A stretch of 63,961 bases of DNA, counting the filler, from Reclinomonas americana ATCC 50394 (taxonomy: Eukaryota), in the NCBI GenBank assembly GCA_048213135.1. It is 11 parts of 9 records of this genome, joined end to end, with 100 filler letters (N's around TTAATTAATTAA, not from the genome) between each part and the next. Parts side by side here need not be neighbours in the genome. Positions count along the whole stretch, not along the records: positions 23,338 to 35,732 come from AFZH01016528.1; positions 35,833 to 40,628 come from AFZH01016529.1; 9 more parts are not named here. One strand, 5' to 3'. The position numbers and the translations under genes are program-made. Below, one piece after another: positions 6,095 to 48,960 of the stretch. Under the pieces are notes generated by a model. The model was not told where the DNA came from. It searched no databases and was given only the letters and a program-made list of their open reading frames with translations. Position 1 is the stretch's first letter, and the number at the start of each line of letters is the position of its first letter.

Positions 6095-6751
6095 CCTCGT
6101 TGCTCACACGTGCTCCTGCTGCTGCTGCTGCTGCTGCGGATGGACGGATCCCGCGCCCCACAGACACACACACTCCTCCGGAGTACGCACACGCGGAAAT
6201 GAGGAGAAACACACGCCCGGATAACCCTATATGCGTGGCCGGAGTCAGTCTGCCAGTCAAGTCAACTCATTGTCTCACAGAGACACACATTGCTCTCGTC
6301 AAGACAACACACGCTGAAGGAGGGAATGAGGCGGAGAGAGCGCGCGCGCGCGGGAAGGGAGAGCGAGAGAGACACACACTGCGGAAGAACACGCGCATCA
6401 GGCTCCGACCTATGAAATACATTGACCGCGACTTTATCTCTCTTCCCCGCAGTCACACACACACAATGTGCAACACACAAAAGGGTGAGAGAGCAAGAGC
6501 GCGAGAGAGAAACACAGCGTGTCCTCTGCTGGCCTGCGGAAATCGCGGACATGCGTAACACACACATACGCACTCGCCCTCTCTCTCTTGCCGCCACTCA
6601 CTGTCTCTCTCTCTCTCTCTGTCCACACACCAGCGTGCAAGAGAACAACCGCGGCTGCGAGGAAGACGGCGACCAGATGATGATTGAGTGATTGAGTGAG
6701 TGTGGACAGTTTTCATTGACGTCATCTCTGTTGGTTTTTGTGCGAGAAAAG

Positions 6752-12277: not shown

Positions 12278-12998
12278 NNNNNNNNNNNNNNNNNNNNNNN
12301 NNNNNNNNNNNNNNNNNNNNNNNNNNNNNNNNNNNNNNNNNNNNNNNNNNNNNNNNNNNNNNNNNNNNNNNNNNNNNNNNNNNNNNNNNNNNNNNNNNNN
12401 NNNNNNNNNNNNNNNNNNNNNNNNNNNNNNNNNNNNNNNNNNNNNNNNNNNNNNNNNNNNNNNNNNNNNNNNNNNNNNNNNNNNNNNNNNNNNNNNNNNN
12501 NNNNNNNNNNNNNNNNNNNNNNNNNNNNNNNNNNNNNNNNNNNNNNNNNNNNNNNNNNNNNNNNNNNNNNNNNNNNNNNNNNNNNNNNNNNNNNNNNNNN
12601 NNNNNNNNNNNNNNNNNNNNNNNNNNNNNNNNNNNNNNNNNNNNNNNNNNNNNNNNNNNNNNNNNNNNNNNNNNNNNNNNNNNNNNNNNNNNNNNNNNNN
12701 NNNNNNNNNNNNNNNNNNNNNNNNNNNNNNNNNNNNNNNNNNNNNNNNNNNNNNNNNNNNNNNNNNNNNNNNNNNNNNNNNNNNNNNNNNNNNNNNNNNN
12801 NNNNNNNNNNNNNNNNNNNNNNNNNNNNNNNNNNNNNNNNNNNNNNNNNNNNNNNNNNNNNNNNNNNNNNNNNNNNNNNNNNNNNNNNNNNNNNNNNNNN
12901 NNNNNNNNNNNNNNNNNNNNNNNNNNNNNNNNNNNNNNNNNNNNNNNNNNNNNNNNNNNNNNNNNNNNNNNNNNNNNNNNNNNNNNNNNNNNNNNNNN
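12278..12998. other. Assembly gap (Ns)
   Basis: Run of N. Confidence 1.
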
Positions 12999-15110
12999 CT
13001 GGGAGTTGGTGCGTGTGCATGCATTGTTGATTGCATTCTGCGTGTGCATTGGTGATTCATTCGTTGCTCTTTGACAGGTTGGTGACTTGAGTTCTGTGTA
13101 TTTCCGCGAGTCGGTGGGCGGTGTCGAGGGTCGCAGCAAGATTGCCGCGTTGCGTCTGTTTTCTCCATTGTTCCTCCTTTGCTGTTCTCTCTGTCTGACT
13201 CTCTGTGCAGGTTCGATCTCGACGAGTGCGTGGAGTTGTCTCTCTCTGTGAATTCAGTGTGTGTGCGCGCTGACTCCCGATTGCAGTACGCTGGTCCGCA
13301 CGCGCTCCGGCAACACGTTTGCGAAGAACGCCAGTGACTGGCAGTGGTTGTACCCGCAGGTGCGATACAGATGAATCGACCTGCTGCTGTCCACTCCTTG
13401 TCGTCGTGACAGGATGCCGGTGTCCACTCCTTCTCGTTGTCACGCACTGAGATGCCTGCTACTGTCCATTGCTTCTCCTTTTGACGCACAGACATGTCTT
13501 TTGCTGCCATTCTTTCTCGTCGTGACTGGACGATGTCTACTGCCAGTGTCCACTCCTTCTTTGTGTCACGACGACATCTCGCTTCTGCTGCCATTCTTTC
13601 TCGTTGTGGACGATATCTCGCTTTTGCTGCCAATTTTTCTTTTGTGTCACACAGACAACTCCCTGCTGCTGTCCACTCCTCGTCGTTGTGTCTCGCTGAA
13701 GTCTCGCTGCTGGTGTCGACTCCTTCCCGTTGTCACGCTGACAACTCTCTGCTGTCCACTCCTCCTCGTTGTGTCACGACGCTATCTCCCTGCAGATGCC
13801 CACTTCTCCTCGTTGTCGTCCTTCTCACTGTCACACGCCGATTACTCTCTTCTCTTGTCCACTCCTTCTCGTTTCCCGTGCCTGTCCACCCCTTCTCACC
13901 GCACCAACAGGTCGTCGGCAAGCTGCGCGAGCTGCACGATGAGGGCTACAAGCTGGTGATCATCAGCAACCAGAATGCCCTGTCGGCCGAGAAGAAGGGC
14001 GGCCAGTCCAAGTCCAAAGTCGCGGAGACGCACGGCCGCTTCGATCAGGTCATGGCCGGCATCGATCGCCCGATGCAGGCGTTCATGGCGATTGAGAAGG
14101 ACCGCTTCCGCAAGCCGTACACGGGCATCTGGGACTTGCTGAGTGCGCACCACAATGGCGGCGTACTCATCGACAAGGACGCCTCGTTTTTCGTCGGCGA
14201 CGCCGCCGGTCGCCCGGATGGGTGGAAGGTGCTGTGCTGGATGCACTCTGTGTACGTATCCCTTTCTCTCTCGATCTCACGTCATATACGCACACCACAG
14301 AGCGGCCGAAAGAAGGACTTTTCGTGCACCGATCGCAAGTTCGCTCTCAACGTGGGCATCAACTTCAAGACTCCCGAGGAGTTCTACCTGGGCGAGCAGC
14401 CAGTCGACTTTACATGGGACGGCTTCAACCCGCACTCGATTGACGAGTTGGAGGATCGTCACGTGCTGGCTGATGGCGGTCAGGTCGTTCGCCCGTCGCA
14501 GGAGGTCTGTGTCTTTGCACTCCTTGTCATGCAGCGAGAAACAGCCTTCGCTCACCCATCCCTTCCCCGTTCCCATAGATGGTCCTGATGGTCGGCTTCC
14601 CCGGCAGCGGCAAGAGCACGTTTGCGCGCCGTCACCTGCTGCCCGCCGGCTACGTGCACGTCAATCGCGACACGCTGAAGACGCCCGCCAAATGCCTGGC
14701 GGCGGCCGAGGCGGCACTCCAGGCCGGCAAGAGTGTGGTGGTCGACAACACGAACCCGTCGCGCGAGGCGCGCAGCTCGTACATTCGACTGGCCGACAAG
14801 CACTCGGTGCCGGTGCGCTGCTTCATCATGGAGGCCGACGAGGACTTGGCGCAGTTTCGTCTGCATCATTGCGTGGATTTTTCACTGTTGTTGATTTTTT
14901 TTTTGTTGCAGGCACATGAACATGTACCGCGAGGCGGTGACGAATGGTGAGCACAAGCACGTGCCGGGCATGGCGTATGGAGTCTACAAGAAGAGCTTCG
15001 AGGAGCCGGACCCGGCGGCCGAGCACATTGCCGAGGTCAAGGTCATCCGTTTTGTGCCGCAGTTCGACAGCGAGGAGCATCGCAAAATGTTCAAGATGTT
15101 CCACTGCTGA
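12999..15110 (+). CDS. PNKP: Bifunctional polynucleotide kinase 3'-phosphatase (5' end in gap)
   Basis: Spliced HAD motif KIAA|FDLD(D)|TLVRTRSG (exons 13078-13148, 13211-13225, 13287-13359). Also VIISNQ, RKP.TG, FFVGDAAGR, KKDFSCTDRKFA, kinase P-loop GFPGSGKST, HVNRD and VVVDNTN. Confidence 0.95.
13375..13895. repeat. Degenerate tandem repeat (about 35-50 nt unit) in PNKP intron
   Basis: Recurring 'ctgctgtccactccttctcgttgtcacg'-like units fill the 551-nt intron 13360-13910. Confidence 0.8.
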
Positions 15111-16044: not shown

Positions 16045-16088
16045 NNNNNNNNNNNNNNNNNNNNNNNNNNNNNNNNNNNNNNNNNNNN

Positions 16089-16100
16089 TTAATTAATTAA
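16089..16100. other. Artificial scaffold spacer TTAATTAATTAA flanked by Ns (also at about 23282, 35777, 40673, 44543, 48746, 52699, 55800, 59919, 62731)
   Basis: Identical 12-mer with stops in all six frames, always embedded in Ns. Confidence 0.97.
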
Positions 16101-16144
16101 NNNNNNNNNNNNNNNNNNNNNNNNNNNNNNNNNNNNNNNNNNNN

Positions 16145-17037: not shown

Positions 17038-18778
17038 TTACTCCTTCTTCTCGTGTCCCGACGATGGACTTGGCGGTTGCACGGGCAGAATGTCGGGGTA
17101 CGTGGGTCCCTTGGCCGGCACCGATCGGCACGGCCAGTTGAGGTATGGACCGGGGAACTTGCAGCCGGACTTGGGATCCTCAAAGTCCAACAGCATCTTG
17201 TCCTTCTTCACAAACAGATCCCAGCACCATTGTGCAATCTCCTCGTCACCAGTCGGGATTCGATTCACCGGAATCTCCTCGCAGTAAATGTGAATGGTGA
17301 CTGGCGCGAGGCCCTGCGACGACACACAGAGATCAGCGCATCGGTAAACGTAACAGAGAGACTCACATCCGCGGAGCACCCACCGTGAGCACCGACCACG
17401 CACTCGGGGCGCGGGTGGTGTACTTGAGTGTGAGGTCGTACACAGCGTCGATGCGGTGCCTCAACTGCTGCACCGAGGCCACAATGCCCTTGGTGCGCGG
17501 CGCCAGGATGCGCTGGAAAACTGGTCGCTGGTTCTCGGCGCACCACTGTTGCGACTGCTCATGCTTGCGCCTCTCGAAGCGCGTTCCCTCGGGGAAGGTC
17601 ACGAGCCAGAATGGCTGATCGCCAAACCTGCCAGACCACATTTTTCGAAGTGAGGACTGGGTCGAAGTGTGTGTGTGTGTGTGATTGTTCGCTGCTACGC
17701 AACATCAACAGTCGCTGGAACACCTTGTAGACGCGCTTGGCATCCACAAACCAGTTGCGCTTCACAAACACCATGTCGAGGAACAACATGCCCCATCCAG
17801 TGGCCGGCATGTACTTGATGGCCTCCTTGGCGAAAAACTTGGTGCCCGCTGCCAAACAGAACGTATCAGTCAGTCAGTCAGTCAGTCGGCACGCAGGATT
17901 GAGTGAGAGCACTAGCTCAAAGAGGCGACGCACCAAGACGACCGCGACGCAGCGCAAACGCAAACACAATCATGGGATCGAGATACGAGCAGTGATTGGA
18001 GAGCACAATCGCGTTGCGACCCGGCGGCAACTCGTGGCCCTGGAACTTGAGCTCCATGCCTCCAATCTCCAAAAACACATCAAACAGCCACAGCCACACG
18101 CTCTGGTACGCGTCGTTCCAGCTGCAGGAAGAGAGAGAGAGAGAAGGTGAGCAGAAAGAAGAGAAGATATACGAGAGTGACACAGAGAGGAGAAGAGTCT
18201 GTGCTGCTTCACGAGAAGCTGCAGATACAGAGAAGTGAGCAGATATAGAGACATCTCTCGTTCGTTCTTTCTCTCTCACACACAGCGAAAGAGACAGAGA
18301 GGAGAGACGCTTCGAAGCTGCTGCTTCTCCATATAAGTGAGCAGACACAACGAGACAAGTGAGAAATACTCTCCCTCTTTCGTTCGTTCTTTCTCTCTCA
18401 CACAGAAAGAGACAGAGAGGAGAGACAGGTCTGTGCTGCTTCCAAGCTGCATTCTTCCCCCTCCACCCACCGTCTGCACAGGCGCGGATTGAACGGATGC
18501 ACGACGACCCAAGTCATCATCTGAATGACATTGAAGCCGACTCCCGACAAGACGAGGAACGAGAACAAGAAGAACGCGCGCAGCTGGCCCAGCAACCATC
18601 GCGGCCAGGACACCACCCGCACTCGCTCGCCACGCGACGTCAATCGCTCGCCGGCCGGTAACACAAACGTCGGAGATACCGCCGCCACCGGAGATGAAGG
18701 CGGAGATGATGCGGCGGCGGCAGTCACCGACGCCGTTGACTTGTTCGCTGCATTCGTGATGCCATCTTTGGCTGACAT
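17038..18778 (-). CDS. Lysophospholipid acyltransferase (LCLAT1/AGPAT3-5 type)
   Basis: NHCSYLD (HX4D), KFFAKEAIKYMP, FVKRNW, WLVTFPEGTRF, LAPRTKG, DAVYDLT, FVKKDKML; N-terminal TM. Confidence 0.92.
18150..18450. repeat. Internally duplicated GA-rich intron segments
   Basis: 'tcgttcgttctttctctctcacaca..aaagagacagagaggagagac' and 'gtctgtgctgcttc' each occur twice. Confidence 0.6.
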
Positions 18779-20190: not shown

Positions 20191-23100
20191 ATGGATGGCA
20201 CCAGTGTGCACATGACAGACATGTTTCGGTGAGTGCCGCGGGATTGTTTGTTGTTCCTTGTGTGTGTATGTGTGTGTGTGAGTTGGGGCGAAAACGGATC
20301 CGCGTGTGTGCTCTTTTGATCCTCTCGTACATGCTGCATTTGCGTGATTGTACACTCATGCCTGTCTGTTGCTTTCCGCACTGGGCAGTCCGCAAGGAAA
20401 GGCCGAGGACTTGTTGCAGACGGTGGCCGGAGTATCTCCACGGTTGGTGTCGCCGGGGATCTCACCACCGCGTGGTCCGCCAGGCACCGCAGCCGCTGCG
20501 ACTCCGCCCACCTCCACCACGCCCACCACCACCGCCACTTCTACTACGACGATGATCTCGCCGCGGTTGACTGGCACGGGGGCGATTGAGGAAGTTGTTC
20601 CGGAGGCGCTGGGCAGTGGGCACGGCAGTCCTCGCAAGTCGTTCCGTCCCGATCTGTGGGCCTACCTGGAGAGCACGGCCGCCGGCGGAGCGGGCAGCAA
20701 TGGCGGCGGTCTGGCCGGCAGCAACAGCAGCGGTCTGGGTGAGAGCGGAGTTGTGTGGCCAAATTCGGCACGCGACCACTCGACCAGTGACGACCGCTTT
20801 GAGTTGGACCTGATCAAGGACTCGCGCTCACGTTCACATCCGTGTTCACCGCGTATCAACAGCGATTTGGGCGATGTGGCACCACCGGCGCTGTCGTCGC
20901 CACGCACTCCTGGTGGCACGCCGTACGAGCACCCGCTGGGCGAGCATCCGTCGCGGAATCTTTTCGTGCGCAACATCAGCAGTGTGGTGGAGGACGAGGA
21001 GCTGCATCGGCTGTTTGGCCAGTTTGGCCACGTTCGCAACATGCACACGCAGTCCAAGCATCGCGGCTTTGTGGTGGTCTCGTTCTACGACATTCGCGAT
21101 GCACGGGCGGCGATGCGCAGCCTGCAGGGCTTTGTGCTGCACGGGCGCAGCATGGAGATCCACTACTCCATTCCCAAGGACAACCCATCGGAGCGCGACC
21201 AGAACCAGGGCACGCTCGTCGTCTTCAACCTTGATGCCTCGATCAGCAACGAGGAGCTGCATGCGGTGTTTGAGCGGTTTGGCGAGGTCAAAGAGGTGAG
21301 GGAGACGCCGAACAAGCGGCACCACCGCTTTGTCGAGTTTTACGACACACGGCACGCGGAGAACGCCATGCGCGCCCTCAACAAGTCCGAAATCAAGGGC
21401 AAGAAGATCAAGATTGAGCCAAGTCGACCTGGCGGCGTGCGCAAGTCGGGCGTGCCGCTCGTATCGCCGTCGCAGCTCTGGTCGGCCGAGTTCACCGAGG
21501 AGGATTTGGCGCGATTGAGTTTCGTCCACTCCGCCTCACTTGCCTCTGTATTCCTTTGCCTCATCTCACACTCTCTGTGCGTGCAGTTCCGTCGGATCCC
21601 ACCTCACCCGACGCGCTCGGTCACTCGGCGTCCGGTCTCGGTGACCTCGTGCCACCGCTTCGATCAGTCCCCGCTGGCGCCCATCCGTCGTCAGCTCCAG
21701 GGTCGGCGCGATCCGAGGGCTCGCACTACAGCGTGCACTCGTCGCCGTCGGCGTCGCCGCACAGCACCCCCCGCCAACTGTACTCGCCCATGGGCCAGTC
21801 GCCACTGGCACACGCCTATGTCACGCAGACGGTGTGTATGTGTGTGTTGCTTTTCTGTCTCTTTGTTGACCTTGCGTGCACTCACTCAACTCTCCGTGCG
21901 CAGAACTCGGCCGACGACTCGCTTCCGAGCACAACGTCTATTCACCTGCCGCAGAGTGCGACATCGCCTCGTCCCCGTGGAAGCCCGCGACAGCATGTGC
22001 CGCTCGGCTACTCGCCGCGGCGTCAGAGTCCTGCCACGCTGTACGACGAGCAGTCGTACATGATGGTGGCGGCGGCAGCGGCGGCACTGGGTCCCGAAGA
22101 TTTTGACGAGGAGGATGCCATATATTCCAATTCAGCTTCACCGCGTCGTCTCTCCGACGACATCACCGCGCAGTCGCTGGGTGGTGCCGACGGCGACGAG
22201 GATGTGCTGGACAACAGCGCCGACATGTCGGGCATGATGGGTGGTGAGTCGGCGCACCACAGCGCGATGGCGTCCGCCGTCAATGGCGGCATGGTGCATC
22301 CGCCAATGCCGCAGATGCCTGCGCCAACGGCGACGACGACGGCGGCAGCGACAGCGGCGGCGGCATATGGTGTGCCACCTGCGGCTGCTTACGGAGCGTA
22401 CGGTTCCGTGTACTACGGTCAGCCCCCGGCGACGCACCACGCACACCACGCGCATCACCACCAGGCGGCGCAACAGCACCATCACCACCACGCGGCGCAG
22501 CAGCACTATGCGGCGGCTGCGGCCGCTGCCGCTGCGCAAGCTCACCATGCGTACGGTGCTCCGTACGGCTACGCCCCGGGACCGCCACCACCGCCTCCGC
22601 CGTCTGCCTCTGCCGGTGGCTACGGCCCTGCGCCACCTGGGTACCCTATGCACACGCACCATCCGCACGCCCACCACCACCAGCACCTCGGTCCGCCCCC
22701 ACCGCCACCGCCACCGCAAGCACACATGTCGCCACCCGGCGGCTACATGTCGGTGGAGCAGCATCATCACCACATGATGTCATCGCCTCCGCAGCCGCAG
22801 CAGCAACAGCCACCACAATATGGTGGGTCGCCGTACGGTCCAATGACGCACCAGGGTATGGGCTACGGACAGTCGCCTGGCTCGTCGCAGTCACCGCCAC
22901 CGTCGCAGCAGCAGCAGCAGCAGCAGTATCAACAAGCGCCACCGCCGCCGTTCGTGGTGTCGCCGCCGCCGAGCCAGGTGATGCAGTCGCCGCTGTTGCA
23001 CCCGACTGTGGCCTCGCTGCAGCAGCACGGACAATCGGCGCCGCCGAGCATGGACACGTATCAGTACATGCCGTTGTCGTTGCGTTTTCATTTGCGTGCG

Positions 23101-23645
23101 TGTGTGTGCTTGTACGCGTGCCTCTGCATTGTGCTCACCACATTCGTAACACCAACACAGAGATCACATGTCGGAGGACTCGGGCGGTGTTGGCAGCACC
23201 GGCGGTGGTAGCAGCAGCGGGAACTGGTCCATGTCGANNNNNNNNNNNNNNNNNNNNNNNNNNNNNNNNNNNNNNNNNNNNTTAATTAATTAANNNNNNN
23301 NNNNNNNNNNNNNNNNNNNNNNNNNNNNNNNNNNNNNTCGCTGATTTGCATGAGCGGTTCAACGGCAAGAAGTGGGAGCGGTTCAATTCCGAAAAGGTGT
23401 GCGCCATCACGTTTGCACGCATCCAGGGCAAGAACAACCTGGTGCAGCATTTCCAGAATTCGAGTCTCCTGTTTGAGGAGGAGCAGTGCAGACCACTGCT
23501 CTTTAACGATGTCGGCGAGGAGGTGTGTGCATGACAGAGAACAAGAGTTGGTGTTGCTCAGTGTGCTCATTATTGTGTCTGCGCGCAGGAGGAATTCCCT
23601 GTTGGGCCTTACGCTCGCCGCCGCCGTGTGTCAACCGATCCGTGA
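20191..23645 (+). CDS. Mei2-like RNA-binding protein (RRM1, RRM2, RRM3); spans a gap
   Basis: EHPSRNLFVRNI..KHRGFVVVSFYDIRDA..IHYSIPKDNPSERDQNQGTLVVFNLD..HHRFVEFYDTR; RRM3 end FNGKKWERFNSEKVCAITFARIQGK..LVQHFQNSSLL. Confidence 0.93.
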
Positions 23646-27201: not shown

Positions 27202-30200
27202 ATGGGCGATCAGAACGCAGAGATCGCTGCGATTTTTACAGAGCATGATCGGCAGGAGTTCACCAGCACGTTCTTACAGGTGCGCGCGTGTGTGTGCGCA
27301 TGTGTGTGTAAGAGAGAGAAGGAAGAGAGCGCGAAAGAAAGCAGAGAGAGAAAGAGTGTGAGATTGCATTTGAAGTTTCTGAGAGATACAGATTGTGTGT
27401 GTGCACATGCGCGTGTGTGCGTGCCTACGTGTGAGAGAGCAAGCTAATATGCGCAGATACCACCTTCTCCCCTCACTTTGTCAGTCATGTGATATCGCGG
27501 CTCCACGCTCATTTCTTGATATGAAATCGCAGCTTGGCATTGTGGCACTCGGCTTATCTCTGATCTCGGCGTTGGTTCTGATGGTCGGTCTCAGTCGCGG
27601 TCGACTTCGTCATTTGCCACTGTTGCGCACTTTTTCTTCTTCTTCTCTCTCACTCACTCACAAGAGAACGATCTTTCTCATGTGTTGCTTGTAGCATGTT
27701 TGCGCGCATCATGGACGCCAAGACCTTCGCGCGATGGGCTCTCTTTTCCACGATTGTCGTGTGGTTCTTTCTGATCATTGCTCCGCCGGTGTTTCTCATT
27801 GCCTGGGGCGTGGTGGTCAGTCATTTTCTTTTCTTCTTCATGCGGTTGTGTGCGACTCAACTCTCTCCACCCACCACCAGACGGCGGCTCGTGTGAACCC
27901 GTATCTGATTGGTTTGACCATCATCCTGCTGTCGATTGGCACTGGCATCCTGTTCTTTGCCGTGCTGCGCTGGCGCCAGATGCGCTTCCTGTTGACCGGT
28001 ACGCGTGCTGCTCGTCTCGTCTCTCCCTTGCCTTGCCTTGCTCACTGACTGACTGACGGATGCGTGCGTAGCTTTCACGTGGTGGCTGCTGGTGCTCGGC
28101 CTCATGTGCTTCCTGATCTACGAGATCGTGGTCGTGTACACCATCAACGTGTTCACCTACATTGGTGCGTCGTCGGTGTGGCTCTCCTTCAACGCCATCT
28201 TTGTGGTGCTGATTGGCCACGAGTTTGAAAAGTGTTGCGTCTTCCCCTCCCCTTCCTCCTCCTCCTCCCACTGCCGGCCTTGGTGCACTCATTTCATTCG
28301 ATGCGCAGTGCACCTGAAGGACGTTGACACAATTCTGAACGAGAGCAACGTGAGTGGCGCCAGTGGCGCATCGCAGTACGGTCCACCGCAGTTCGTGTCG
28401 GCCATGTTCACGCGCTTCGGTCGGCTCAAGCCAGTGTTGCGTCTGCCGTGCCAATTGACTTAACGATTTCTCTTCACCAGCACGTCCTCACTTGTGCCTG
28501 AACACACGCAGCACGCGCATCATCATCTACTACATCATGGCCATTCTCGTCCTCGTCGGCTACATTGTGACCGTGCTGACTCAAGTCGACGACCGCGAGA
28601 CCGTGGTGACGGCCACTGTGGTCGCCATTATCGTTGTTGGTGAGTCCCGACAGCGATCTGTGAACCATGCTCCGTCTCTCTATCTCACTGCTTCTGTGAC
28701 CAGATATTTTGCTCTTTATGCGCTTCATTGCGCAGCGTCAGGCGGACCCGGTGCTGCTTTCGTGGAAGGCCATTGCGGTGCGAGTGGCACTCATCTTTTT
28801 GGGCCAGCGGTCAGTGACATGGTCTTTGTCGTCACCACCGTGATAATCACGAATTCATCTCTCTCCCCTCTCTGCTCTAGATACTACTTTGTCGCCCACA
28901 CCGTCGTCTTTATTGCGTTCGGGTGGTACCTGGTCACCGAGGCGATTCTGCGTCGCTACCCGAAGTACTCGCAGTCTCGCAACGAGATTGTGCTGGATGG
29001 CATGCAGCGAATCATGGAGGCCAACTCGCCGGCCGCTGGCACCGCCGCGGCTGCCGCGTGGAGTGACGCGGAGGCGGCAGGCGTGGGAGCGAGCAGTGCG
29101 GCAGCGGGCGCCAGTGACGATCCAAGCAGGTGAGGAGTGTCTGGTGAATAAGCTGACACCTGCGGACGGCTCATCGCACGCGCGACACAGACACGCGCCG
29201 TCTATCACGCCCGTTTCTCCTACTGCACGCCGCGCCGCGACGCCGACACCCATCTCGCAGCGGGTGTGTGCCGTCAGAGCGGTGTCGTTCGCTTACGTGT
29301 GTGCGTGTGTCGCTGACCCGTGATGGACGCAGTGGTATCTCTCGCCCGAGTTCGTACTGCTGTTGCTGGTGCTCGCTTTCGTCATTGAGATGATTGTGAC
29401 GGCACGAGTCGGCCACCTCGACAAGGTCCGCATTGTGGACTTGTACCACGAGCAGTGGCTTGTCGGCGTGTGTGGCATTGTGCGTGCAAATATGTTTCCC
29501 TCAACGCAGCAAGTCTGCAGTTTTCTCAATCACTTGCAGATTCTGGTGGCCGACTGGGCTTTTATCGTGTGGACAGCCATGGTGTTGCTGTCGACCAACT
29601 GGTGTGCCGGCATGACGGTGAGCATTCGACTCGCCACTCTCCGCTTTTGTAACGTGCCTCATCTTGCATCTTGCAGTTCCGTACATTTTTCGGTAGCGGC
29701 GCCGGCTGGTGCTTCTTCCTGTGCGAGGTCGCGATTGCCGGTCTGGGCCTGCTGGTTGTACTTGTCACGCGCTCGTACATTTTCCTCTTCAGCTCGATCT
29801 TTGCGTATCCCACTGGCCTCTTGTGCGCCTTTGCGTTGCACTGGTGGCGCGACAATCACTACAGTTGCGCCACATTTCGACATTGGCAAGTGCTTTTTTC
29901 TCTCTTCTCACGTCGCTGGAACGGCGCACAGATGTGCTACAAGAGCCCAAGTTCCGCAAGGAGCCGCATCGCGCTCGCAACTCATTCAGTGCCTTTTTGT
30001 GCTGCGGCCTCACTGGCGCCGACTACGGGGTTCGTGTCCACTGGCGTTGTGTATCCGCTCGGTTTATTGCTCACTTGTTTTGTCGCTGCAATCAGATGTT
30101 GTTTGTGCTCCTGCTCATCTGCGGTCTGCTGGTGGCGTGGGGCGGCGGCATTGCGGCAACCATTTATCGTTGGGTGTTGCTTGTCGTTGTTGTTGTGATA

Positions 30201-33200
30201 CTGCTTGCAGTCACAATCTGACGTTCTGTTGTCGACGCAGAGTCGTGGATTGGTTGGACCATTGTGGCTGTGCCGTTTGTCGTCGGAACCTCGGTGCGTC
30301 GTTTCTCTCTGCTTCCATCGTGTACGCCTTCCATGTTGATTCATTATCTCCCCCAAACAGATTCTTCCCATGGTCAAGTGGTATCACACGCTGAATGTGT
30401 CGCGCTCAATTCTTTTCGGCCTCGTCAGCGTTCTGCTTTTCGCCTTTATCTGGACTCTGTTGCGTCATCGTCGTGATGCGGGGACTCTTGCCGTCGGTGT
30501 CTGACATGTTGACGCACTCAGCTACATGGCCCTCATGTATACGCGCATCATTGATCGCAACGACAAGAGCGCCAGTCTGGCAATCCTCTTGGTTTACTTT
30601 TCGTACCCGACGCTGGTGCTGGCCATCAGTGCCTTTATCGTCTGGTGCGTGCATGGTGTACTTCTTCTTTTTTTTCTTGGTTGTCATTCAGCTGACACCC
30701 CATCCGCAGGCGCGAGAACCGCTGGAAGCTGACGAGTGTCGTCTTTTGGTGCCTCCTGCTGTGCGCACTTCTCGTTCTGGCCCTGGCCATTGCCGTCACG
30801 GTCGTGCTGAGTGTGGCAGCGGGTCTGGCGCTCTTTGGAGTGTTTGCGTTGTTGGTGGTGGCCGTCGTTGCGTGCGGGACTCAGACAAAATGTCGTGAAC
30901 TACTGAATAGAGAGGCTAACTGCCTGGGCGGCTGCTGGCGATAGGTGTCGATTGTCATCTGGGTGCGACACGATTTCCAGGCGCCCACTTTGCTGCGCCA
31001 GATCGTCGTCACCAGCGCACTGGTGCTGATTGCCGCCGGCATCGGTATTGGCTTTGCCGTGAATCAGGCGTTTGCCGGCTTTAGTGTGGCTTTCGGTGTG
31101 GCCTTTGTCGGTCTCCTGTTCCGTGGTGCACGCTACGTGCTCGATCGGTATGTGGGCCCTGCTGTATGCTCTCGCCTCCCGTCAACTATGTTGACAAAAA
31201 GTCCACACGCACAGGTACACGTTGAATCGCTTGTACTGCGTTTCGAGTCCATTCGTTGCGTGCTCCACATTTCGTCCTCCGCCACTGCGGCGCTAACGTT
31301 TGCTGGCACAGGTCTTCCCGCTGTTCAAGTACGACTCGACGAGCGACACGGTCAAGTCGTACAATCGCAGCATCAGCTCCCTTTGTTGCGTCTCTCTTGT
31401 GCGGTCCGAAGAAGCGCGGTCTCGTGGTGTTCACGTGTTGCCGCCAACTCAGACATGTCATTCTTCGTGCTGCTGTGGTGGGGTGCGGCGGCCACGGTGT
31501 TCCTCTCGCCTGCCTGGATCGGCATGGCCGTGGCGTCGCTGGCGGTGCTCCTGTGCTTCATCCTCACGCTCGACGCACTGCGCCGTCCCCAGGAGGCCTT
31601 TACCAGTGTGGCTGACTACGTGACACCCGCGCTCATTGCGCGTGCCCACGAAGAGGTGAATAGAGAGGTGTGCACACATATGTTGACCATTGATTGTCTG
31701 ACTGGCTCGACGCGGTGGTGTGTGTGCGTGTGCAGGCCGACAGTCGCTTCTCCGAGTTCCAGTTGAATCGACTGCACCCCGACATGGACGACCAACCGCA
31801 GCCACACGGTGCTTCGGGATCGACGGTGCCGGCCATGGGAGGCCACCCCATCAGTCCCACCAACATTGTGCTGAACGAGCCAGCCGACCAAGGACCGCGC
31901 GGTGCCGGTCCCGCACCGTATGTCGCACCTGCGAGCGAGGGACCGGTGCCAGCGAGCGAGTTGGAGCGACGCATCGGTGCCATGTCGCTGGGCTACAGAG
32001 AAGGCGACCATGCCAACTGGCTGCAGCTCCAGGAGTACAACCGCCTCATCAACGAGGCGCACAAGCAGGAGCAGCAGCGCATCGCTTACTTCCGTGTTGC
32101 GTTGGGGGTTCACCAACCAGCGTGTTTTTCTCCCTTGATGGCTTGTGCTGAATTCTCGTGAATAGTTGCATGTGCTGATGGCCGCCAGTGCCGCCCGTCG
32201 CGCCGACGAGGCCGAGTTCAATGAATTCGTCGGCCTGCAGATTCGCGAGTTGCAGGCGCAGCAGGATGCCGCCAATGCCGCCATTGTGGCTGTTTCGTGC
32301 TTCTTCTCTTTCTCTCGTGTATTTCGTGTTGAGTGCTGGTGGCTCACTGGTGAGAACACGCAGGCGGGTGACGACCCCACTGCACGACGCAACGCGGAAG
32401 CCTCGCGAGCGTTTTGCGAAAAGGCCATTCGCGTGTATCGTGACATTCAGACGGGCAAGCTGACGTTGCGCGCTACAGCCTATTGTTGTGGTGTCGACGA
32501 TTGACCGCTGACCATTCTTGTTGTTCTTGATTGTGTCGTGCAGTCGGGTCAGCGACCAGGATAACGCGCTCGTACGTCACGACTTCCGTGCGTTCAAGGT
32601 CAAGCGCGAGGCGGAGATTGCCGAGCAACGCCGTCGCAAGCGTGAGGACGAGGAGGCAGAGCGACAACGGTGAGTGTCTTTTTTTCCATGATATGTACTC
32701 GTGTGTGTAGCATTGGCTGAGCATGACCGTCAGTCGTGAGTTGGTGCGACGGCAGCGCGAGGAGGAAGAGCGCCGTCAGCGGGAAGAAATGATGCGCCTC
32801 GGCGGCGGTGGCGGCGGCGACGGTGGCGGTGTCTCACCGTCGGCTGTTGGCATGGCCGTGGCTGCGCAGGAGCAGCTCATTGCGCGCATGCGGCAGGAGT
32901 TCGACGCCATGCTGCGTAGCGAGCAGCAACGTCGTGACGAGGCCGAACAGAGGCGAGCTGCCGCAGAGACCGAACTTACGCGCCTGCGCAACGAGATCAG
33001 CGGAGCGCATGAGGACCACGGCACCGCGCAGAGCCGCATCGCCGAGCTGGAACGGCAGTTGCGCGAGGCCTCGGCCATCGCCTTGCACCTCGACCAGGAG
33101 GCGTCGGAGGCTCGTCAGTCGCTGCAAGCGAGTGAGCAACGCGCGGCTGATCTGGAGCGCCAGGTGATGGAGGGACGAGCGCGCCCCGCCGACGACGCCA

Positions 33201-36200
33201 ATCGGGCCATGCTGGAAGAGCTCACTGCGGCGCGCGATCGAGTTGCGTCTTGTGTCTCTATTGCTGTCAATCGATCCTTTCAGTGATGCTAATCGCATGA
33301 CAGGCCATGGACCAAGTGCGACAGTCCACAACGCAGCTGGAGCAGGAACGTGCACATTCGCAGTCACTGCAGCAGGAACTCAATACACTGCGCGCGCAAG
33401 CTTCGCGAAACAGCGACTCCAGTGCCAGTGTTCCTGCAGCCACGCAGCAGCAAATTCAGTTGCTGGAACGACAATTGCGTGCGGTGCGTGACTTCATGTG
33501 CAACACAGTCTGGTGTTGTGTGCTGACACGCATGTTTTCTCGTGTGGTTAGTCAACGGACCGTGCGGATCGGCTGCAGGCCGAAGTCTCCCAGCTGCACG
33601 ACGCTCTGCAGGCGACTCAGACGGAGCTGCACACGGCGCAGGACCGTCTGCATGCTGCACTGCAGGTATGCAGCACGCAACATGATTGGAGTGCATGGGG
33701 CTCACTGCTCACTATCTCTCTCTCACAGAACACGTCGGCTTCGACGGCGGAGATGGAGGCTGCCAAGCGTGCACAGGCAGAGGTAATATTTCACACTAGG
33801 TGATGACTTGCATCTGTGCGCTGACACTGCTCTGTGGTACTCATTGTGCAGGCGGAGCGTCGCATGGCCGCGGCCACTTCCAATCTCGAGGTGGAGCGCC
33901 GACGAGTGTTGGAGGCGAGTTGATGCACCAGTGCTTTCCTCTCGGTGGCCTCTCTTGTTCTCATGTCGCGCACTATTCAACAGTTGGAAAGTCAACTCGG
34001 CACCGCGCAAGCGACAGCACGCGAGGCCACTGCTCAGCTGCAACAGCTGCGCGTGCGCGCGGAGCGTGCCGAGGAAGAAGTGCGCAAGAGTCGGCAGGAG
34101 ATCGCCACGCGGGATGCGCGCATCACCGAGTTGCAAGAGGCCACGCAAAATGCCCGTCGCGACCTGGTTCTCGCGCAGCGCCGCATTGCGGAGCTTGAGG
34201 TGCTGTTGGCACACGCTTCGGCCGGTGGCGCAGTGGGCGGTGGTGGTGGCGGCGGTGGTGCACCTGCGTTGATTCCTGTGGCTCCAGTCATTAGTGGAGG
34301 TGGATTGCGTCCGCGTCGCGGCCCCACCATCGAGTCGATTATTGCCGAGTGCAAGTCGGCCGGCCGCAAGTGGCGCGACACGACATTTTCGTCAAACGAC
34401 TGCCTGCACATTAATCCGCGACGACCCTCCAAGAGTGCGTTGTGTCTTGCATTGCTTCCCTTTCGCGTGGCTGGTCTCTCACTGCAACACTCGCCACACT
34501 TGTGTTGCGCAGCGTACCAAGTGCGCGAATGGAAAGATCCGTCGTCAATTGCTGACACACCAGCCGTGTTTGTGGAGGCACCGACAACCGATGCGTTTGG
34601 ACCTGGCACTCGCGTCCGTCAAGGGGTTTGTCTTGTGCTGCCGGTGATTGATGTTGGCATGGATCGATTGTTTGACTGACTCGTGGTGTGTTGGCAGTCA
34701 CTCGGCGGTACTGTTCCCACATTGCACTGCTGTATTCATGACTGTGCAGAGTGACTTACATGTGCTTGTTTGCTTCCATGTGTGTCGCTGCGATTGTTGT
34801 TTGACGCAGAGTTGCGTCTCCTTGATTGCATGTCTTCTGTCTTGCATCACTGATGTCTCATCCCACCGCGATCTTGCATAGTTGCTACTTCCTCAGCGCA
34901 CTCTCGGTGAGTTTTGTCACCACATTCTTCTGCTGGTGTGCGTGCACGCTGCTGACCTTGTGCATTCTCATACAGGTACTCGGCAAGTACGGCGACCGCC
35001 TTCGCGACCTGTTCGTGGTCAACACGCGCCAGCAGATGCCTGGTGAGGAGAGCACGGATGTGGGCGGACCAGCGGTGTCGCTTGACGACTGCATCAAGTG
35101 GGGAGTGTGCGTAACTCTGGTAGCAGTCTGCTTCATCGTGACTTGACGCTGATCGACATGCATGCAGCTTCAACATCAAGTTCTACAAGGAGGGCAAGTG
35201 GGTGTCGGTGTTTGTGGACGACAGGTGAGATGCTGCATGCGTGTTGTCCTCACTGGCGCGCAGCCCACTCACACCCAAATACAGTTTGCCCACATTCAAC
35301 ATGCATCCGTCGTTTGGTCGCTCTGTGCGCGATGACGAGTTTTGGGTTTCGCTGCTGGAAAAGGTTTGCCGCGGTGCACTGGCGTTGATGCAGTGCCCCT
35401 GTTGTCGCTGACTGGAGTGAGTTGCAGGCGTACGCCAAGGTCCACGGCAGCTACGAAGCCATTGTCGGCGGTCAAGTGTCCAACGGTGCCCATATTTGCT
35501 CGTGTCGTTTTCTGATGGTTGTGGGGTACTCACATCCTGTTAATCAGCACTGGTGGATTTGACGGGCGGTGGCGGCACGCTGATCGACCTCACCGACACC
35601 AAGGTGAAGCTGGATGTGGACAGCGGGCATCTCTTTGATCAGCTGCTGCAGTACTACAAGGCAGGTCATCTCATTGGCGCCGGCTCGGTGGATGGCATGG
35701 GTCGCGGTGATGCGGCCACCGTGCGTGGTATCNNNNNNNNNNNNNNNNNNNNNNNNNNNNNNNNNNNNNNNNNNNNTTAATTAATTAANNNNNNNNNNNN
35801 NNNNNNNNNNNNNNNNNNNNNNNNNNNNNNNNACTGGTGAGCTGGCTGTCGACTGTGAATCGTTGACGCGCACTGCTGACTCACATGTTACGCGCAGCGC
35901 GAGTCGCAAGCGTTCTCCACGCATGTGACTTACGAAAACCACCCGATTGGCCTGAAACTGGTCTCCAAGCGCGGCAAGCGAGTGCAAAACGGTGTGTCAG
36001 CCATTGTCGTGCCGTGTTTTGTGATTTCGTTGTGCTGACTGGGAGTGATTTCGGTGCAGTGTACACGCGAGAGGTGGTGGCCACGAGTGGTTCCTTTGTT
36101 GCGTACACGAGAGGGCAAAGCGGGTAGTGGAGATCCATCGAAAACCAACTCATGTACACGCACACACAGATCAATTCGACACAAGTGAGCGTGGAGCTGG

Positions 36201-36340
36201 CGCTGGAGCCGTCCAAGTGCCCCGTGACCATTGTGCCATGCTGCTACGACAAGGGCGAGGAGGGCCGTTACACACTCATGGTGTTCTCCGACAAGGACGT
36301 GGACTTCCGCATGCTCGACAGCAGCGTGGCTGCCGACTGA
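27202..36340 (+). CDS. DEK1-like multi-transmembrane calpain (TML - coiled coil - CysPc - C2L), more than 35 exons, spans a gap
   Basis: Many hydrophobic exons, including SPFVFPLFKYD and WWGAAATVFLSPAWIGMAV resembling the DEK1 membrane domain. CysPc: QGSLGDCYFLSAL, KFYKEGKWVSVFVDD, FWVSLLEKAYAKVHGSYEAI, ALVDLTGG. C2L end: TIVPCCYDKGEEGRYTLMVFSD. Confidence 0.88.
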
Positions 36341-40071: not shown

Positions 40072-43000
40072 ATGGACGCAGAGCTCAGTCACCTTGTGTA
40101 CTTGGACTACAATGCATCGACGCCCATCTGCACAGCTGCACGCGATGCAATGCTTCCTTTCCTCGGAGCTTTCTTTGGCAATCCGAGCAGCTCACACGCC
40201 TTCGGAGTCGCACAAGTTCCTCTCTCTCTCACACACTCTCACTCTTGTGTGTGTGCAGTCTCTTACTCTCTGTGTGTCTTCTCAGAGAAAGGCGATTGAG
40301 AAAGCGCGACAACAGGTGGCCAGTGCGTTGCGAGTGACCGGAGGTCCCGATGAGATCATCTTCACCTCGGGAGGCAGTGAGAGCAACAACTATGCGATCA
40401 AGGGTGCAGTGATGCGGGCGAGGTGAGGGGCACAGTGATGAGAGAGAGAGGGGGAGGGAGGGAGGAGAGAGGGGGGAGAGAGAGAGAGAGAGAGACAGGT
40501 AGGGATGCAGGCAAGCAGACAAGCAGACAGTGCCTCAAAGACCACGCTTTCTTCCCTCTCTCTTCTCTCTCCCTGTTCCCCGCTGAAGAGCAAGGCAAGC
40601 AGTTAAGAAGATAGCCAAGCAGGGATGCNNNNNNNNNNNNNNNNNNNNNNNNNNNNNNNNNNNNNNNNNNNNTTAATTAATTAANNNNNNNNNNNNNNNN
40701 NNNNNNNNNNNNNNNNNNNNNNNNNNNNAGGCAGACTGCCTTACAGACATACAGGCAGGCAGGCAAACAGACAAGCAGACAGACAGACAGGCAGGCATGC
40801 AGACGAGCAGACATTACGACGAAGACCACTCATTCTTCCCCCTCACTCCCTTTGCCTCTCCTTCTCTCCTCGTTTGCCCTTCTCCCTGGAACAGCGCTCT
40901 GTACCTCAACAACGCAGGCGGTCACATTATTACGAGCAACGTGGAGCATCCGGCTGTGCTGGAGGTGTGTCGCGCACTTGAAAAATCCGTGCCAGCGTTC
41001 ACTGTGTCGTACGTGGAGGCCGATGAGAGTGGTCTCGTGTCGGCCGACGCAGTCATGCGAGCGGTGCGCGATGACACGCTGCTCATCACGATCATGCACG
41101 TCAACAATGAGGTCGGCACGGTGAACCCGATTGCGGAGATTTGTCGGCGCGTGAGGGAGCTGAATGCGGCGCAGCCTGGTCGCCGGGCGCCGGTGCTGGT
41201 GCACACGGATGCGGCGCAGTCTATTGGCAAAATCCCTACGTTTGTCGACGAGTTGGGCGTGGATCTGCTGTCGGTGTGCTCGCACAAGTTCTACGGACCG
41301 AAAGGTGTCGGGGCGCTGTACATTCGACGCGGGGTGCAGCTGGAGAAGCAGTTGCATGGAGGTGAGAGACTGTGTGTGTGCGTGAGAGCTGGTCACGGCC
41401 CTGAATGTCTCTGTGTGTGTGTGCAGCCAATCACGAGCGCAACATGAGACCAGGCACGGAGAATGTGTTGGAGATTGTCGGCATGGGTGCCGCCATCGAG
41501 GACATGGTGCGCAATCTCGACAAGAACGCAGCGCACATGCGATGCATGCGGGACGCACTGCACACGGCACTCGAGGCAGCGTTTCCGCCGCCCCTCACAC
41601 GCCTGAATGGCCACCCCACGGAGCGCCTGCCCAACACACTCAAGTTTCGTTTTCCAGCGATCATCTCGTTCCCTCTTCACTGCTGTTAGTTGTGACTTCT
41701 TCGCACCCCACGCAGCATCGGCTTCCGTAACGTGGAGGGCAGCTCGGTGCTGGATGCGTTGAGCGACACGCTGGCGGCGTCCGCTGGTGCCGCCTGTCAC
41801 AGTGGCGACGATGCCATCTCGTACGTGTTGCGCGCGATGCACGTGCCGGAGGAGTACTCTCGCGGCTCCTTGCGTCTGTCCACTGGCGTGCTGACCACGG
41901 AGGAGGAACTGGAGCGCATTATGCCCAAGTTCATCGAGGTGGTACGAGGACTGATGCCAAAGGAGGAGGCACATGACGGGGAGGAGGAGGAAGGGGAGGC
42001 GTGTGCGTTTCTGCATGCGGATTTGAAGTTGCGGCATCGCTGTGCCACAGTTGTGGTCTTCGCTTCCTCGAGCTGATGGTGTGTGGTGTGCAGGTCGATT
42101 CGACTCACCACCACCACCCACGGTCTGGGCTGTGGGTGCAAGCTGCGCCCGCAACTGCTGGAGCAGGTGTTGCGGAATCTGCCACCACCCTCCGACCCGA
42201 ACGTGCTGGTGGCCACCTCGACGGCAGACGACGCTGGCATCTACAAACTCAGCGATACGCTGGCCCTGGTGCAGACCGTTGACTTTTTCACACCCGTGGT
42301 CGACGATGCGTACATGTTTGGCGCCATTGCCGCCGCCAATGCCATTTCTGATGTGTGCGTACACTTGTGGCAGTGCATTCCCCTCGATACTGGTGCCAAC
42401 CACCTCTTCCTCCAGGTATGCCATGGGTGGCATTCCGCTGACGGCGCTGAATATCGTTGGTTTCCCGTCGTCTCGATTGCCGCTGGCGGTGCTGGAGGCG
42501 GTGTTGCGGGGCGCAGCAGACAAGGCCGCCGAAGCTGGCGTCTCCATTCTGGGTGGTGGGTGCTGTGCAAGCTGCAGTGCTTTCTATGGTGATGCTTATT
42601 GCGGGCAGGCCACTCGGTGGAGGACCTGGAACTCAAGTTTGGCATGGCGGTGACGGGAACAGTGCACCCGGATCGTGTGTGGTCGAATGCCACCATGGAG
42701 GCCAACGACGTGCTGATTCTGACAAAGCCACGTGCGTTTTTTTCAGCCCTTCTTCTTTGTGCTCTGTGTGTGCGAGACTCACGTGCTGTCGACAGTTGGA
42801 GTCGGCATTCTGAGCACGGCGGTGAAACGGCGAATGGTCGACGATAGCACGGCGCAGCTCGCCGCGCGGACCATGGCCCAGTTGAACAAGTACGCCGCCG
42901 AGTGTGTGCTGAAGACGCAACTCCGCGTCACTGTGCATGCGTGCACCGACGTGACGGTGAGAGAGTGTGCGTGTCGGCGGTGGTGTGATCCTCATCTGAT

Positions 43001-43515: not shown

Positions 43516-46500
43516 TTATGAGCATGGACATAATCGGGTGGTGTGCGGGTGCTGACTCGTGCACTGCGGCACCTCCTCTGTGATGAGACACCGTTCTGTG
43601 GAGACACACACAAAAGGGGATGAGGAGGCAGGCTTCCACAGCACTGCAATCGCAGGGAGACGCACGATAGTTGCGGTCGCGTGATTCGGGCACATAGACG
43701 GGGATTTCAGTGCCCCATTCAAGGAAACAGCCTACAAGATGGTCGTGAGCGACGCAGCTCGTTTCGGCAAGCGTGCAACACAAAGTTCGTACCTCGCTGA
43801 CTGCCACACTCGAAGAACTCATACAACGTGTGGCAGTGGTTGATGTAATCAAAGCTCGACGACTCGCACGACAGGCCAACGTTTGCGCACGCTGCACACA
43901 CACACACAAGAATTAAAACACCCACCACGTCTCAAGAATTCAACGTCACACGCACCATTGACGCAGTTCTGATCCCGCTCCGCTCGCACAACTTGAATGT
44001 TCTCCAACGCCTTTTCCAAATCGTTGGCATACGTCTGTGTACCTGCGCGTGAGCCAACAATGCCACTGCCACTTCTCTTTCTCTCCAGTCTCCCACGGAA
44101 CTGGAACGTAGGGCGAGAGCGTGGCACTGGCCAGAATCAGGACGTGCTTGCCGTGCAAGTTGTAGAGGATCTGTGCGTGGCGGTGGTGCGCACGCGGTGT
44201 GGACCAGAGGCCGAGTGCACCGGCAATGCCCGCGAATGCAGGTTTGGCGTACGGAACCAGGAAGACGCCGGGTGCACGACTCTCCAGCGACTGGAAGTTG
44301 GAAAAGTTCGTCTCCAGCACCGTGGCCATCGAGAGCAGTTTGCGCAAGTCCCGTTCGTGTTCCTGCGAGAAGGGGGAGGTGGGGAAGGGGAAGGGAAAGG
44401 GGAAGGGGAAAGGGAGGAGGGGGGAGGGGAGAAGACCGAAGGGGGAAGACGGAAGGGGAAGACGGAAGGGGGAAGACTGAAGGGGGAAGACCGAAGGGNN
44501 NNNNNNNNNNNNNNNNNNNNNNNNNNNNNNNNNNNNNNNNNNTTAATTAATTAANNNNNNNNNNNNNNNNNNNNNNNNNNNNNNNNNNNNNNNNNNNNGG
44601 GGGAAGACCGAAGGAAGGCGAACGGGGAGAGAAGAAAGGGTCCATACCTGGAACAGCATACGAGAGACATCACCGAGATAGACGTCGGGCTTGTCGGCAA
44701 ACGCTACGTTGCGGAAGAAACGATCATACTCGGCATTGTTCACGTCTACTTGCCACAGGTTCAGAATGTGTCTGCTCGTGTACGCACGAGTCCAGCGACG
44801 CAACTGGTGCCTGTCTCGCCAATGTTGTAATTGCGTGAGATCTCTGGAACAACACACTGGCGTCCACGATTCACAGAGTCGATGCGCATGCCGTGGTCCC
44901 AGTGGTCGTTGGACCATGAGTTGCGAATCTGGATGAATGAAGACAGACAAGGTGTGAGCCACAGCACGATAGAGACGAGGTGAATGCTTTCGACTACCGA
45001 GGAGAGTCTTCGCATTACAAACCTCCATCCACACTTCACGACTGAGTATCCAACCGAGACCCGGGAAGAAGCTGGTTCTCCGCAACCGTGCCAGATTCTG
45101 CTCCACCAGATGGTTGAAGCCGTTGTCGTTCCACGTCGACACACACCACAGTGACGGATCGGCAGCCAGCAACGGCGCCAGCTGCTCGAAGAATTGCAGC
45201 AGATCAGGCGAGAACAACATGTCTGCACACAGTCGTGTATGAGAGAGATGGAAAAGACTGCGCTTTGCCCGCATACAAAGCCACCAACCGTCCTCGAGCA
45301 GAATGGCGTGCGTGTGCTTCTTTTGCACAAACACGCGATCGAGGGCCTCCCTGCACCACGCGCTCATGAGCGCAGCAAAAACATGGCTACACCCCACTTG
45401 CGCAACGCGATGACACGTACTTGTAATGCGCTGCAATGAACGCCGTGCCAGTCTCCTGCGCGCCCGGAAGGCGCACGTGATCGCGTTGCACGTGCACGAA
45501 ACTCGGGTTCGCGGCCTGCACCAGCGGCCCGATGCGCCGTCCGCGCCCATCCTCCGACACATACACCGTGATGTCTCCCACGAGGCGCACTTTGTTCAGA
45601 CTCTCCAACGTGCGCTGGAGGTACGTGGTGCGATCATACGTCAACACGATAACAGCGGCGTCCTTCAAGTACTTGAGCGATTGCTGTGCGATAGAGACAG
45701 GTCTGAGTAAAAACGACCAGCGTTCGTCACCGTGTGACGTGGAGAACGAAACTGGCGCCTTCCCGCTCTCAATGTACACACTATCGACCCTCTCAGCCGC
45801 CACCCATTCGCGCGTGCCCGGCAGCCGTCGTTCATGCGACGCCCGCACCAGATCCAAGTACGGCAGATACTCGGGAAAGTCTCGCTGCGATTGCGCCACC
45901 ACCTGCACCAACAGCAGAGTCAACACGCGCTGCACAATCTCTCAACGCGCTGCACAACTCGCACCATTCGCAGCTGCACGCCCTTGCCGGGCGGGAACAA
46001 CTTCTTCGGCATCGCATCCGGTCGGATCAACACTGGCTGTGTGACAGCTGCGCCCTCCTCCTCACCACCTGCATCATCCTCATCCCCACCACTCGACGAC
46101 GACACTGGCGATTCCACAGGCGGTTCTGGCTCCACAGAAGGCGGTTCCAGATCCAGCGGATTCTGCTCACACCAACGATTAAGCGGTGGTGGATTTCTCG
46201 CGCGCCTATCCTCAATTGCAAACTGACCGATTCCTCTGTTGTCTCGCTCACTGGTGGAGGAGGTGGAGGTGCAGGTCGTCTCTTCTTCGACTTGCCACCA
46301 CGTCGTTTCCTTCGCTGTTTTTGTGGTGTTGGCGACTGTTCCTGTTCCTCTCGTCGTCGACGAATGTCATCCAACTGTGCTGCGTATCGATCAATGCGCT
46401 GACGGAAGGCCGCAGTGCCGGGAATGTCAGCGGAGGCTGTCTGTGACTCCTCCTCCTGTGTGTCACCTCCACTTGTGTTATTGTTGTTGCGTGTGAGCTG

Positions 46501-48559: not shown

Positions 48560-48960
48560 AGCTTCTGTCTCGAGTCTGCTGATCTCGATCTTCATGCAGG
48601 AGAAGCACTTCAAAATAGTATCTGCCCTGCGTGGATGATCTGTCTCGAGTCTGTTGATCGTGAGCTTGTGAGACCAGGTGATGAAGGAGGAGGAGAAGAG
48701 GNNNNNNNNNNNNNNNNNNNNNNNNNNNNNNNNNNNNNNNNNNNNTTAATTAATTAANNNNNNNNNNNNNNNNNNNNNNNNNNNNNNNNNNNNNNNNNNN
48801 NGGAGAAGAAGATCTGTGTTTAGTATCAGAGGGTAGCAGTCTTTTGTATCGTTGGTTTGGCATTTTTTGTCTCGAGTCTGTGAGTCAATTGTCGTGCCTG
48901 CTGAGAAGGGCAGAGAAAGTACTGTCCTCCTTGCCTTGTCTCGAGTCTGTTGATCGTGAA
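48560..48960. repeat. Short dispersed repeat 'tgtctcgagtctgttgatc' on both sides of a gap
   Basis: Copies near 48566, 48641, 48868 and 48936. Confidence 0.6.

Follow-up and report, generated by a model that had tools for sequence, protein, structure and literature searches.

What carries the reading frame through an active-site motif when the exons that encode the motif are out of step by one base? This question is raised by a membrane-anchored calpain gene of Reclinomonas americana ATCC 50394, located on the plus strand of a stretch of 63,961 nt (hereafter the window; assembly GCA_048213135.1) that holds 62,360 non-N bases of eukaryotic DNA. The codons around the catalytic Cys are distributed over an exon ending in Gln-Gly, a 10-nt exon and a 25-nt exon (Table 1), and the last two are separated by 174 nt (34708–34881) with GTACTG at the start and CATAG at the end. 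When 34707 is joined straight to 34882, the product is one base short and the frame shifts. We propose that the 174 nt probably represent two short GT–AG introns around an exon of a single nucleotide, most likely the A at 34810, which would leave introns of 102 and 71 nt.

A sequence-only reading made earlier had called attention to this site. Its coordinates and letters around 34626–34906 all agree with the sequence, as does the one-base frame mismatch that it described among the exon ending at 34625 and the exons 34698–34707 and 34882–34906. Its remark that the 174 nt are about twice a normal intron was correct and understated the difference, the stretch being 2.6 times the median intron of 68 nt. 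The claim that a 1-nt exon A is needed for the GDC motif now draws in addition on splice motifs, intron sizes, an enumeration of possible exons, and an alignment and hidden Markov model (HMM) of homologues, and it stays a prediction.

Splice signals in the 174-nt stretch

The gene model was obtained by dynamic programming (DP) over codon scores and splice-site scores, and was corrected by hand. Intron length in the DP was limited to 100 nt; a continuous open path was found under that limit, and therefore no longer intron is needed elsewhere in the calpain gene. Besides the focal stretch, 40 introns were modelled, all of the GT–AG type, with lengths of 52–97 nt and a median of 68 nt; exons of 10–60 nt are common. 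All other junctions of the gene (40 GT–AG introns, >1,900 codons) are in frame, and the ~5.7 kb of coding sequence can be read without any other frame break. Splice sites were scored with position weight matrices (PWMs) for the intron-side acceptor and the donor. The branch motif was taken as CT[ACG]A[CT], which is present in 47 of the 60 training introns used as the reference, at a median distance of 17 nt from the 3' end (range 8–51).

The 174-nt stretch contains four AG dinucleotides only, all of which lie in two CAGAG motifs. The contexts of the two sites are GACGCAG-A-GTTGCGTCT at 34810 and CTGTGCAG-A-GTGACTTAC at 34750. When the internal exons that are flanked by AG and GT, in frame and free of stops were enumerated in the stretch, only the two 1-nt A exons yielded Asp; the other frame-restoring exons insert VA, VTYI, longer VTY... 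strings or ELRLLDCI.

The heptamer GTTGCGT forms the donor at 34811 and had been recognised by the sequence-only reading as a recurrent class. The sense strand of the calpain gene carries 10 copies, and the other nine are all modelled 5' splice sites, a count that is partly circular because the PWM was trained partly on this donor class. In a run that was blind to motifs and penalised introns at a flat rate, donors were placed at six of those nine sites. Use of the donor at 34811 would make 34810 the last base of an exon. A start at 34750 leads into a stop, as does read-through from 34698, and a start at 34752 gives the wrong frame; the single A is thus the only open in-frame exon. The acceptor of the 102-nt upstream intron (34809) scores 4.15, which places it among the best 1.84% of all AG sites. 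The 71-nt downstream intron is typical, with a consensus donor and with CTGAT and CTCAT 28 and 21 nt from its 3' end.

Taken together, these signals exceed chance expectation. The two strands of the window hold 34 copies of the hexamer CAGAGT, a density of 0.273 per kb per strand; on this basis ~0.05 would be expected in 174 nt, where two are observed. AG-N-GTTGCG was found nine times, with an expectation of ~0.0125 per 174 nt. Among the 458 AG-N-GT sites in the window, the sites at 34810 and 34750 ranked third and fifth by the sum of acceptor and donor PWM scores; the two sites that ranked above them both lie in GT microsatellites.

These observations bear on an explanation that dispenses with the micro-exon: the draft may miss one base at an exon edge, or one nucleotide may truly be deleted from this haplotype or copy, as in a null allele or young pseudogene. 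The 174 nt would then be a single intron, and the two CAG-A-GT motifs would be coincidental. We consider this unlikely, though it is the main rival to the one-base exon. The window is a draft in which contigs of a few kb are joined by 10 identical 100-nt linkers (44 N + TTAATTAATTAA + 44 N) and by a run of 721 N. Moreover, the weak donor at 34708 and the acceptor at 34881 are required by the 1-nt exon and the single-intron models alike, with or without a micro-exon, and 34708 is reported as a donor under every hypothesis. On the other hand, only the loss of an A, at one of two junctions that lie outside homopolymers, would fit, and the remaining coding sequence shows no further frame break. 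As a single intron, the 174 nt would exceed the longest other intron of the gene by a factor of 1.8. It would also hold, by chance, a perfect copy of a donor that is a splice site at every other occurrence in the gene, preceded by CAG and the exact base needed. Further lesions would be expected of a decaying pseudogene.

Several points weigh against the one-base exon at 34810 itself. Its upstream intron (102 nt) exceeds all 40 others (maximum 97 nt; model limit 100 nt), and the donor of this intron, GTACTG at 34708, is weak (score −2.0; 90% of the training donors score higher). At the usual 8–51 nt from its 3' end this intron has no CT[ACG]A[CT], the sole related motif being TTGAC at 5 nt; CT[ACG]A[CT] is likewise missing from 13 of the 60 training introns. 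The intron statistics come from our own gene model, and the assembly is a draft of linked contigs. The ab initio model scored a conventional GT–AG path at 7.11 versus −3.81 for the path through 34810, and a DP run in which 1- and 2-nt exons were allowed did not choose 34810. Over the whole window, that run gave no other convincing tiny exon. The only two that it proposed were set aside: a 2-nt exon at 26459 and, on the minus strand, one of 5 nt at 6650, both with introns of 111–130 nt in doubtful regions.

Homology test of the alternative routes

Judged from its sequence, the gene is a DEK1-like type 2 membrane-anchored calpain. Single exons alone match weakly (Peptidase_C2, E 0.066; calpain-5, E 0.74), and the last exon alone matches Calpain_III with an E-value of 0.0089 and 16.7 bits, the curated cut-off being 21 bits. 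A homologous-protein search of longer proteins with the 61-aa and 120-aa exons gave no match at E ≤ 0.001, and a PDB search with the 106-aa read-through open reading frame (ORF) carrying the Cys exon gave none at E ≤ 10. An HMMER scan with the 61-aa exon (35550–35732) returned 24 library proteins, and nine of the 12 that were scanned with Pfam were Peptidase_C2. A metagenome match to this exon was rejected: it was a single high-GC contig with a 1409-aa repeat-rich, bacterial-looking ORF, matched over a short G/T-rich stretch and not a calpain. The calpain core spliced with the A matched Pfam-verified calpains with E-values from 2.9e-49 to 1.7e-33 (best, 39.5% over 258 aa).

Eight calpain domains from the library matches were used as the homologue set, on which an alignment and an HMM were built. 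Q-G-x-L-G-D is present in all eight without length variation, followed by Cys in seven domains and by Gly in the eighth. The Gln of this motif is the oxyanion-hole residue in papain-like proteases. The model with the A aligns without a gap across QGxLGD-C to all eight domains, and the catalytic Cys in the QGxLGDC context was obtained with the 1-nt exon and by no other scored route. The HMM scores were 223.0 bits for the 1-nt A exon, 212.3 bits for a 4-nt exon, 209.4 bits for a 10-nt exon, 206.9 bits for a 22-nt exon and 196.0 bits for the conventional GT–AG path. Shifting the acceptor at 34697 by one base was also considered and discarded, since the acceptor would then not be AG and the LGD motif would be lost.

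The conventional path extends the exon to 34669 and then takes an intron at 34670–34749, a 30-nt exon at 34750–34779 and an intron at 34780–34881. This route is open and in frame, uses one intron fewer (introns of 80 and 102 nt) and has the best ab initio score (7.11), yet it falls 27 HMM bits below the model with the A. It replaces SLGD by 25 unrelated residues between QG and Cys, by which the LGD and the Gln-to-Cys spacing found in 8/8 homologue domains are lost. It also makes a coincidence of the 10 in-frame, AG/GT-flanked nucleotides that encode SLG, and it ignores the donor at 34811. We regard it as very unlikely, a rejection made on homology grounds only.

The preference of the ab initio model for the all-GT–AG route (34670–34749 plus 34780–34881) has a practical side: automatic annotation of the calpain gene at 34513–34906 will probably misread the active site. 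Gene finders cannot model a one-base exon and would produce either a frameshift or an in-frame route that wrecks the active site. Protist DEK1-like calpains could thus be mis-scored as lacking catalytic residues.

The frame might also be restored in other ways, namely by a non-canonical intron of 173 nt (TA–AG or GT–TA), by insertional RNA editing or by ribosomal frameshifting. Moving an intron boundary by one base does restore the frame, as GGT, but the resulting Gly would displace the Asp that is invariant in 8/8 homologue domains, and GAT is unattainable by any single-intron route. Every other modelled intron is GT–AG, a slippery site is absent, and the rest of the gene gives no hint of editing. 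This group of explanations appears the most improbable of those weighed here.

Choice between the two As and order of intron removal

With the one-base exon, the mature mRNA would read ...GGC G-A-T TGC..., and the Asp codon before the catalytic Cys would be built from three exons, so that the calpain active site regains its exact Q-G-x-L-G-D-C spacing. The same mRNA would arise if the A at 34750 were used, alone or in different molecules beside 34810. The acceptor at 34749 scores slightly above that at 34809 (4.61 vs 4.15), its donor GTGACTTAC scores 1.82, the site is fifth of 458, and TTCAT lies 11 nt upstream of 34749; a second CAGAGT in the stretch is more than chance predicts (~0.05 copies in 174 nt). 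Against this stand the lengths of the resulting introns. The sequence-only reading had pointed out that the alternative needs an upstream intron of 42 nt, and this holds: 42 nt is below all 40 modelled introns (minimum 52 nt), and the 131 nt of the other intron is above all of them. The path score is also lower (−12.31 for 34750 vs −3.81 for 34810), and the GTTGCGT at 34811 would stay unused inside an intron. The A at 34810 is therefore clearly the favoured candidate, and a one-base exon placed at 34750, or at both sites in different molecules, is improbable. That the two CAGAGT sites arose by tandem duplication found no support, with 606/2000 and 218/2000 shuffles aligning equally well.

For the predicted exon at 34810, the acceptor CAG and the donor GTTGCGT lie one base apart. 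Factors bound to an AG and a GT at this distance can hardly coexist, which makes it probable that one intron is removed after the other, much as in recursive splicing. If the downstream intron were removed first, the acceptor context would become CAG-A-T; if the upstream intron were removed first, the donor context would become G-A-GTTGCGT. Either order could provide a usable site. Because the introns are short (52–97 nt) and exons of 10–60 nt are common in this gene, the architecture suggests that splice sites are paired across introns. An RNA structure that brings the splice sites together found no support (z-scores −0.91 and −0.65). The use of the A in the mRNA, the choice between the two As and the order of intron removal are all points that we infer.

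Recursive splicing, in which a zero-nucleotide exon is formed where a 3' splice site abuts a 5' splice site, is known from long Drosophila introns. The arrangement proposed here is similar in that abutting 3' and 5' splice sites would be used one after the other, and differs in that one base is kept and the introns are short.

The sequence-only reading had further stated that skipping of the exon would shift the frame just before the nucleophile, and the joining of 34707 to 34882 confirms it. Skipping could in principle act as an on/off switch; there is no sign of regulated use, and a constitutive micro-exon is the simpler reading. An elaboration of this idea, in which the two CAG-A-GT sites 60 nt apart form mutually exclusive one-base exons that gate production of the membrane-anchored calpain, strikes us as quite improbable. 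If it were true, inclusion of exactly one A would give the active protease, and inclusion of none or both would give a frameshift just before the nucleophile. The use of both As was discarded, as it gives 4 nt and shifts the frame.

The calpain gene and known one-base exons

Upstream of the active-site motif, the calpain model is a continuous ORF of 1656 aa. Its first ~890 residues contain 22 hydrophobic 19-mers (Kyte-Doolittle mean ≥1.6; a crude hydropathy scan rather than a topology prediction) and a central loop. A linker of ~650 residues, largely coiled coil, lies between the hydrophobic part and the calpain core. An assembly linker interrupts the gene at 35733–35832, at the cost of the part expected to carry the catalytic His and Asn. 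The long introns of early gene-finder runs were dropped, since chaining through intergenic DNA had given false introns. Two calpain-gene introns longer than 100 nt in an early run (29083–29190 and 33430–33551) proved by hand to be ~60 and 68 nt, and the final model places them at 29130–29190 and 33484–33551. Coordinates are collected in Table 1.

Table 1 Positions of the calpain gene, its active-site exons and introns, donor-class sites and assembly joins in the window.
Feature	Position	Strand	Remarks
Membrane-anchored calpain gene (DEK1-like, MEM-Linker-CysPc-CBSW)	27527–36340	+	DP model; 5' end not fixed
Exon ending ...CAA GGG (QG), phase 0	34513–34625	+	Aligned to homologues
72-nt intron	34626–34697	+	GTTTGT...CTGAC...GGCAG, without internal AG
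10-nt exon TCACTCGGCG	34698–34707	+	S, L, G and first base of Asp codon; fits xLG of QGxLGDC in 8/8 homologue domains
Proposed 102-nt upstream intron	34708–34809	+	GTACTG...GACGCAG
Proposed single-nucleotide exon A	34810–34810	+	Middle base of Asp codon G-A-T; CAG before, GTTGCGTCT after
Proposed 71-nt downstream intron	34811–34881	+	GTTGCGTCT...CTGAT/CTCAT...GCATAG
Alternative single-nucleotide exon A	34750–34750	+	CAG-A-GTGACT; same mRNA; introns 42 + 131 nt
25-nt exon	34882–34906	+	Last Asp base, then CYFLSALS with catalytic Cys
69-nt intron	34907–34975	+	GTGAGT...CTGAC...ATACAG
Next calpain-core exon	34976–35106	+	VLGKYGDRL...
Stop codon of calpain gene	36338–36340	+	
Assembly linker within calpain gene	35733–35832	.	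N44 + TTAATTAATTAA + N44; just before expected catalytic His
GTTGCG(T/C) donors in calpain gene	27622, 28234, 28436, 29864, 30459, 30867, 31255, 31385, 32096, 32465, 33242, 36098	+	
GTTGCG(T/C) elsewhere, examples	8740, 17703, 50714	-	
Assembly linkers	16045–16144, 23238–23337, 35733–35832, 40629–40728, 44499–44598, 48702–48801, 52655–52754, 55756–55855, 59875–59974, 62687–62786		
Run of 721 N	12278–12998		

Some features of the gene and its surroundings stand apart from the micro-exon. The 5' splice sites include a recurrent, unusual class, GTTGCG(T/C), that resembles GTGCGT with an extra T after the GT and accounts for 12 of the 40 modelled introns; within the gene, GTTGCGT is almost diagnostic of a donor. 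The intron ending at 33983 (+) has two in-frame donors that are indistinguishable by sequence, GTGTTGG at 33906 and a GC donor, GCGAGT, at 33915. Tandem CTGA repeats (CTGACTGACTGAC...) occur in some introns, for example at 28030–28060 (+) and ~17860–17900 (−), and provide several overlapping CTGAC branch-like copies. Long ORFs elsewhere in the window matched a polynucleotide kinase 3'-phosphatase (13485–14585, +; Pfam E 1.9e-39), an RRM protein (20348–22060, +; 6e-26), a GNT-I N-acetylglucosaminyltransferase (44600–45595, −; 1.7e-22) and a Na+/H+ exchanger (56695–58032, +; 3.3e-09). Rfam and tRNA scans over the window gave no matches.

Type 2 membrane-anchored calpains such as DEK1 are described with the domain order MEM-Linker-CysPc-CBSW (Front Plant Sci 2023, PMC10762896). 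The present model follows the order outlined in that source: numerous predicted transmembrane segments that enclose a central loop come first, then a long linker, a calpain core and a putative C-terminal beta-sandwich domain. What sets it apart is that its linker forms a long coiled coil.

The sequence-only reading rightly described one-nucleotide exons as very rare: the nuclear cases in the portion of the literature searched are those of the APC11 and CYP621A genes only, beside which the search also brought up a plant micro-exon database for exons of 1–15 nt. In Arabidopsis thaliana APC11, a 1-nt exon in the context AG-A-GT was proven by cDNA, genomic re-sequencing and mutated minigenes (Guo & Liu 2015, PMC4674806). 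In Fusarium CYP621A, a 1-nt exon is conserved in 20 orthologues and was confirmed by SRA reads, and it is termed the second example in that report (Nelson & Syed 2026, PMC12940212). The calpain locus would be a further, predicted case and the first in a calpain. If the prediction is right, it would be the third gene with a nuclear one-base exon, in an unrelated eukaryote, and spliceosomal retention of a single base would be widespread. The exon would split the codon beside a protease nucleophile, within a run of 10-, 1- and 25-nt exons.

As far as the two reports describe their cases, both offer close parallels. In APC11, as proposed here, a single A lies between AG and GT in a supposed single intron, is required for the frame and was overlooked by annotation. 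The APC11 exon is flanked by introns of 332 and ~89 nt, whereas those here would be 102 and 71 nt around an exon predicted from sequence. The calpain candidate further differs from that of APC11 in providing the middle codon base in a catalytic motif, in having neighbouring exons of 10 and 25 nt, and in the second CAG-A-GT 60 nt upstream. With CYP621A it shares a 1-nt exon that gives the middle codon base of a conserved motif, an intron more than twice the median with CAG-N-GT as the clue, and an argument that relies on homologues to fix the spacing. The CYP621A exon is backed by 20 orthologues and SRA reads, while that of the calpain is a sequence prediction in a different organism and a different gene family.

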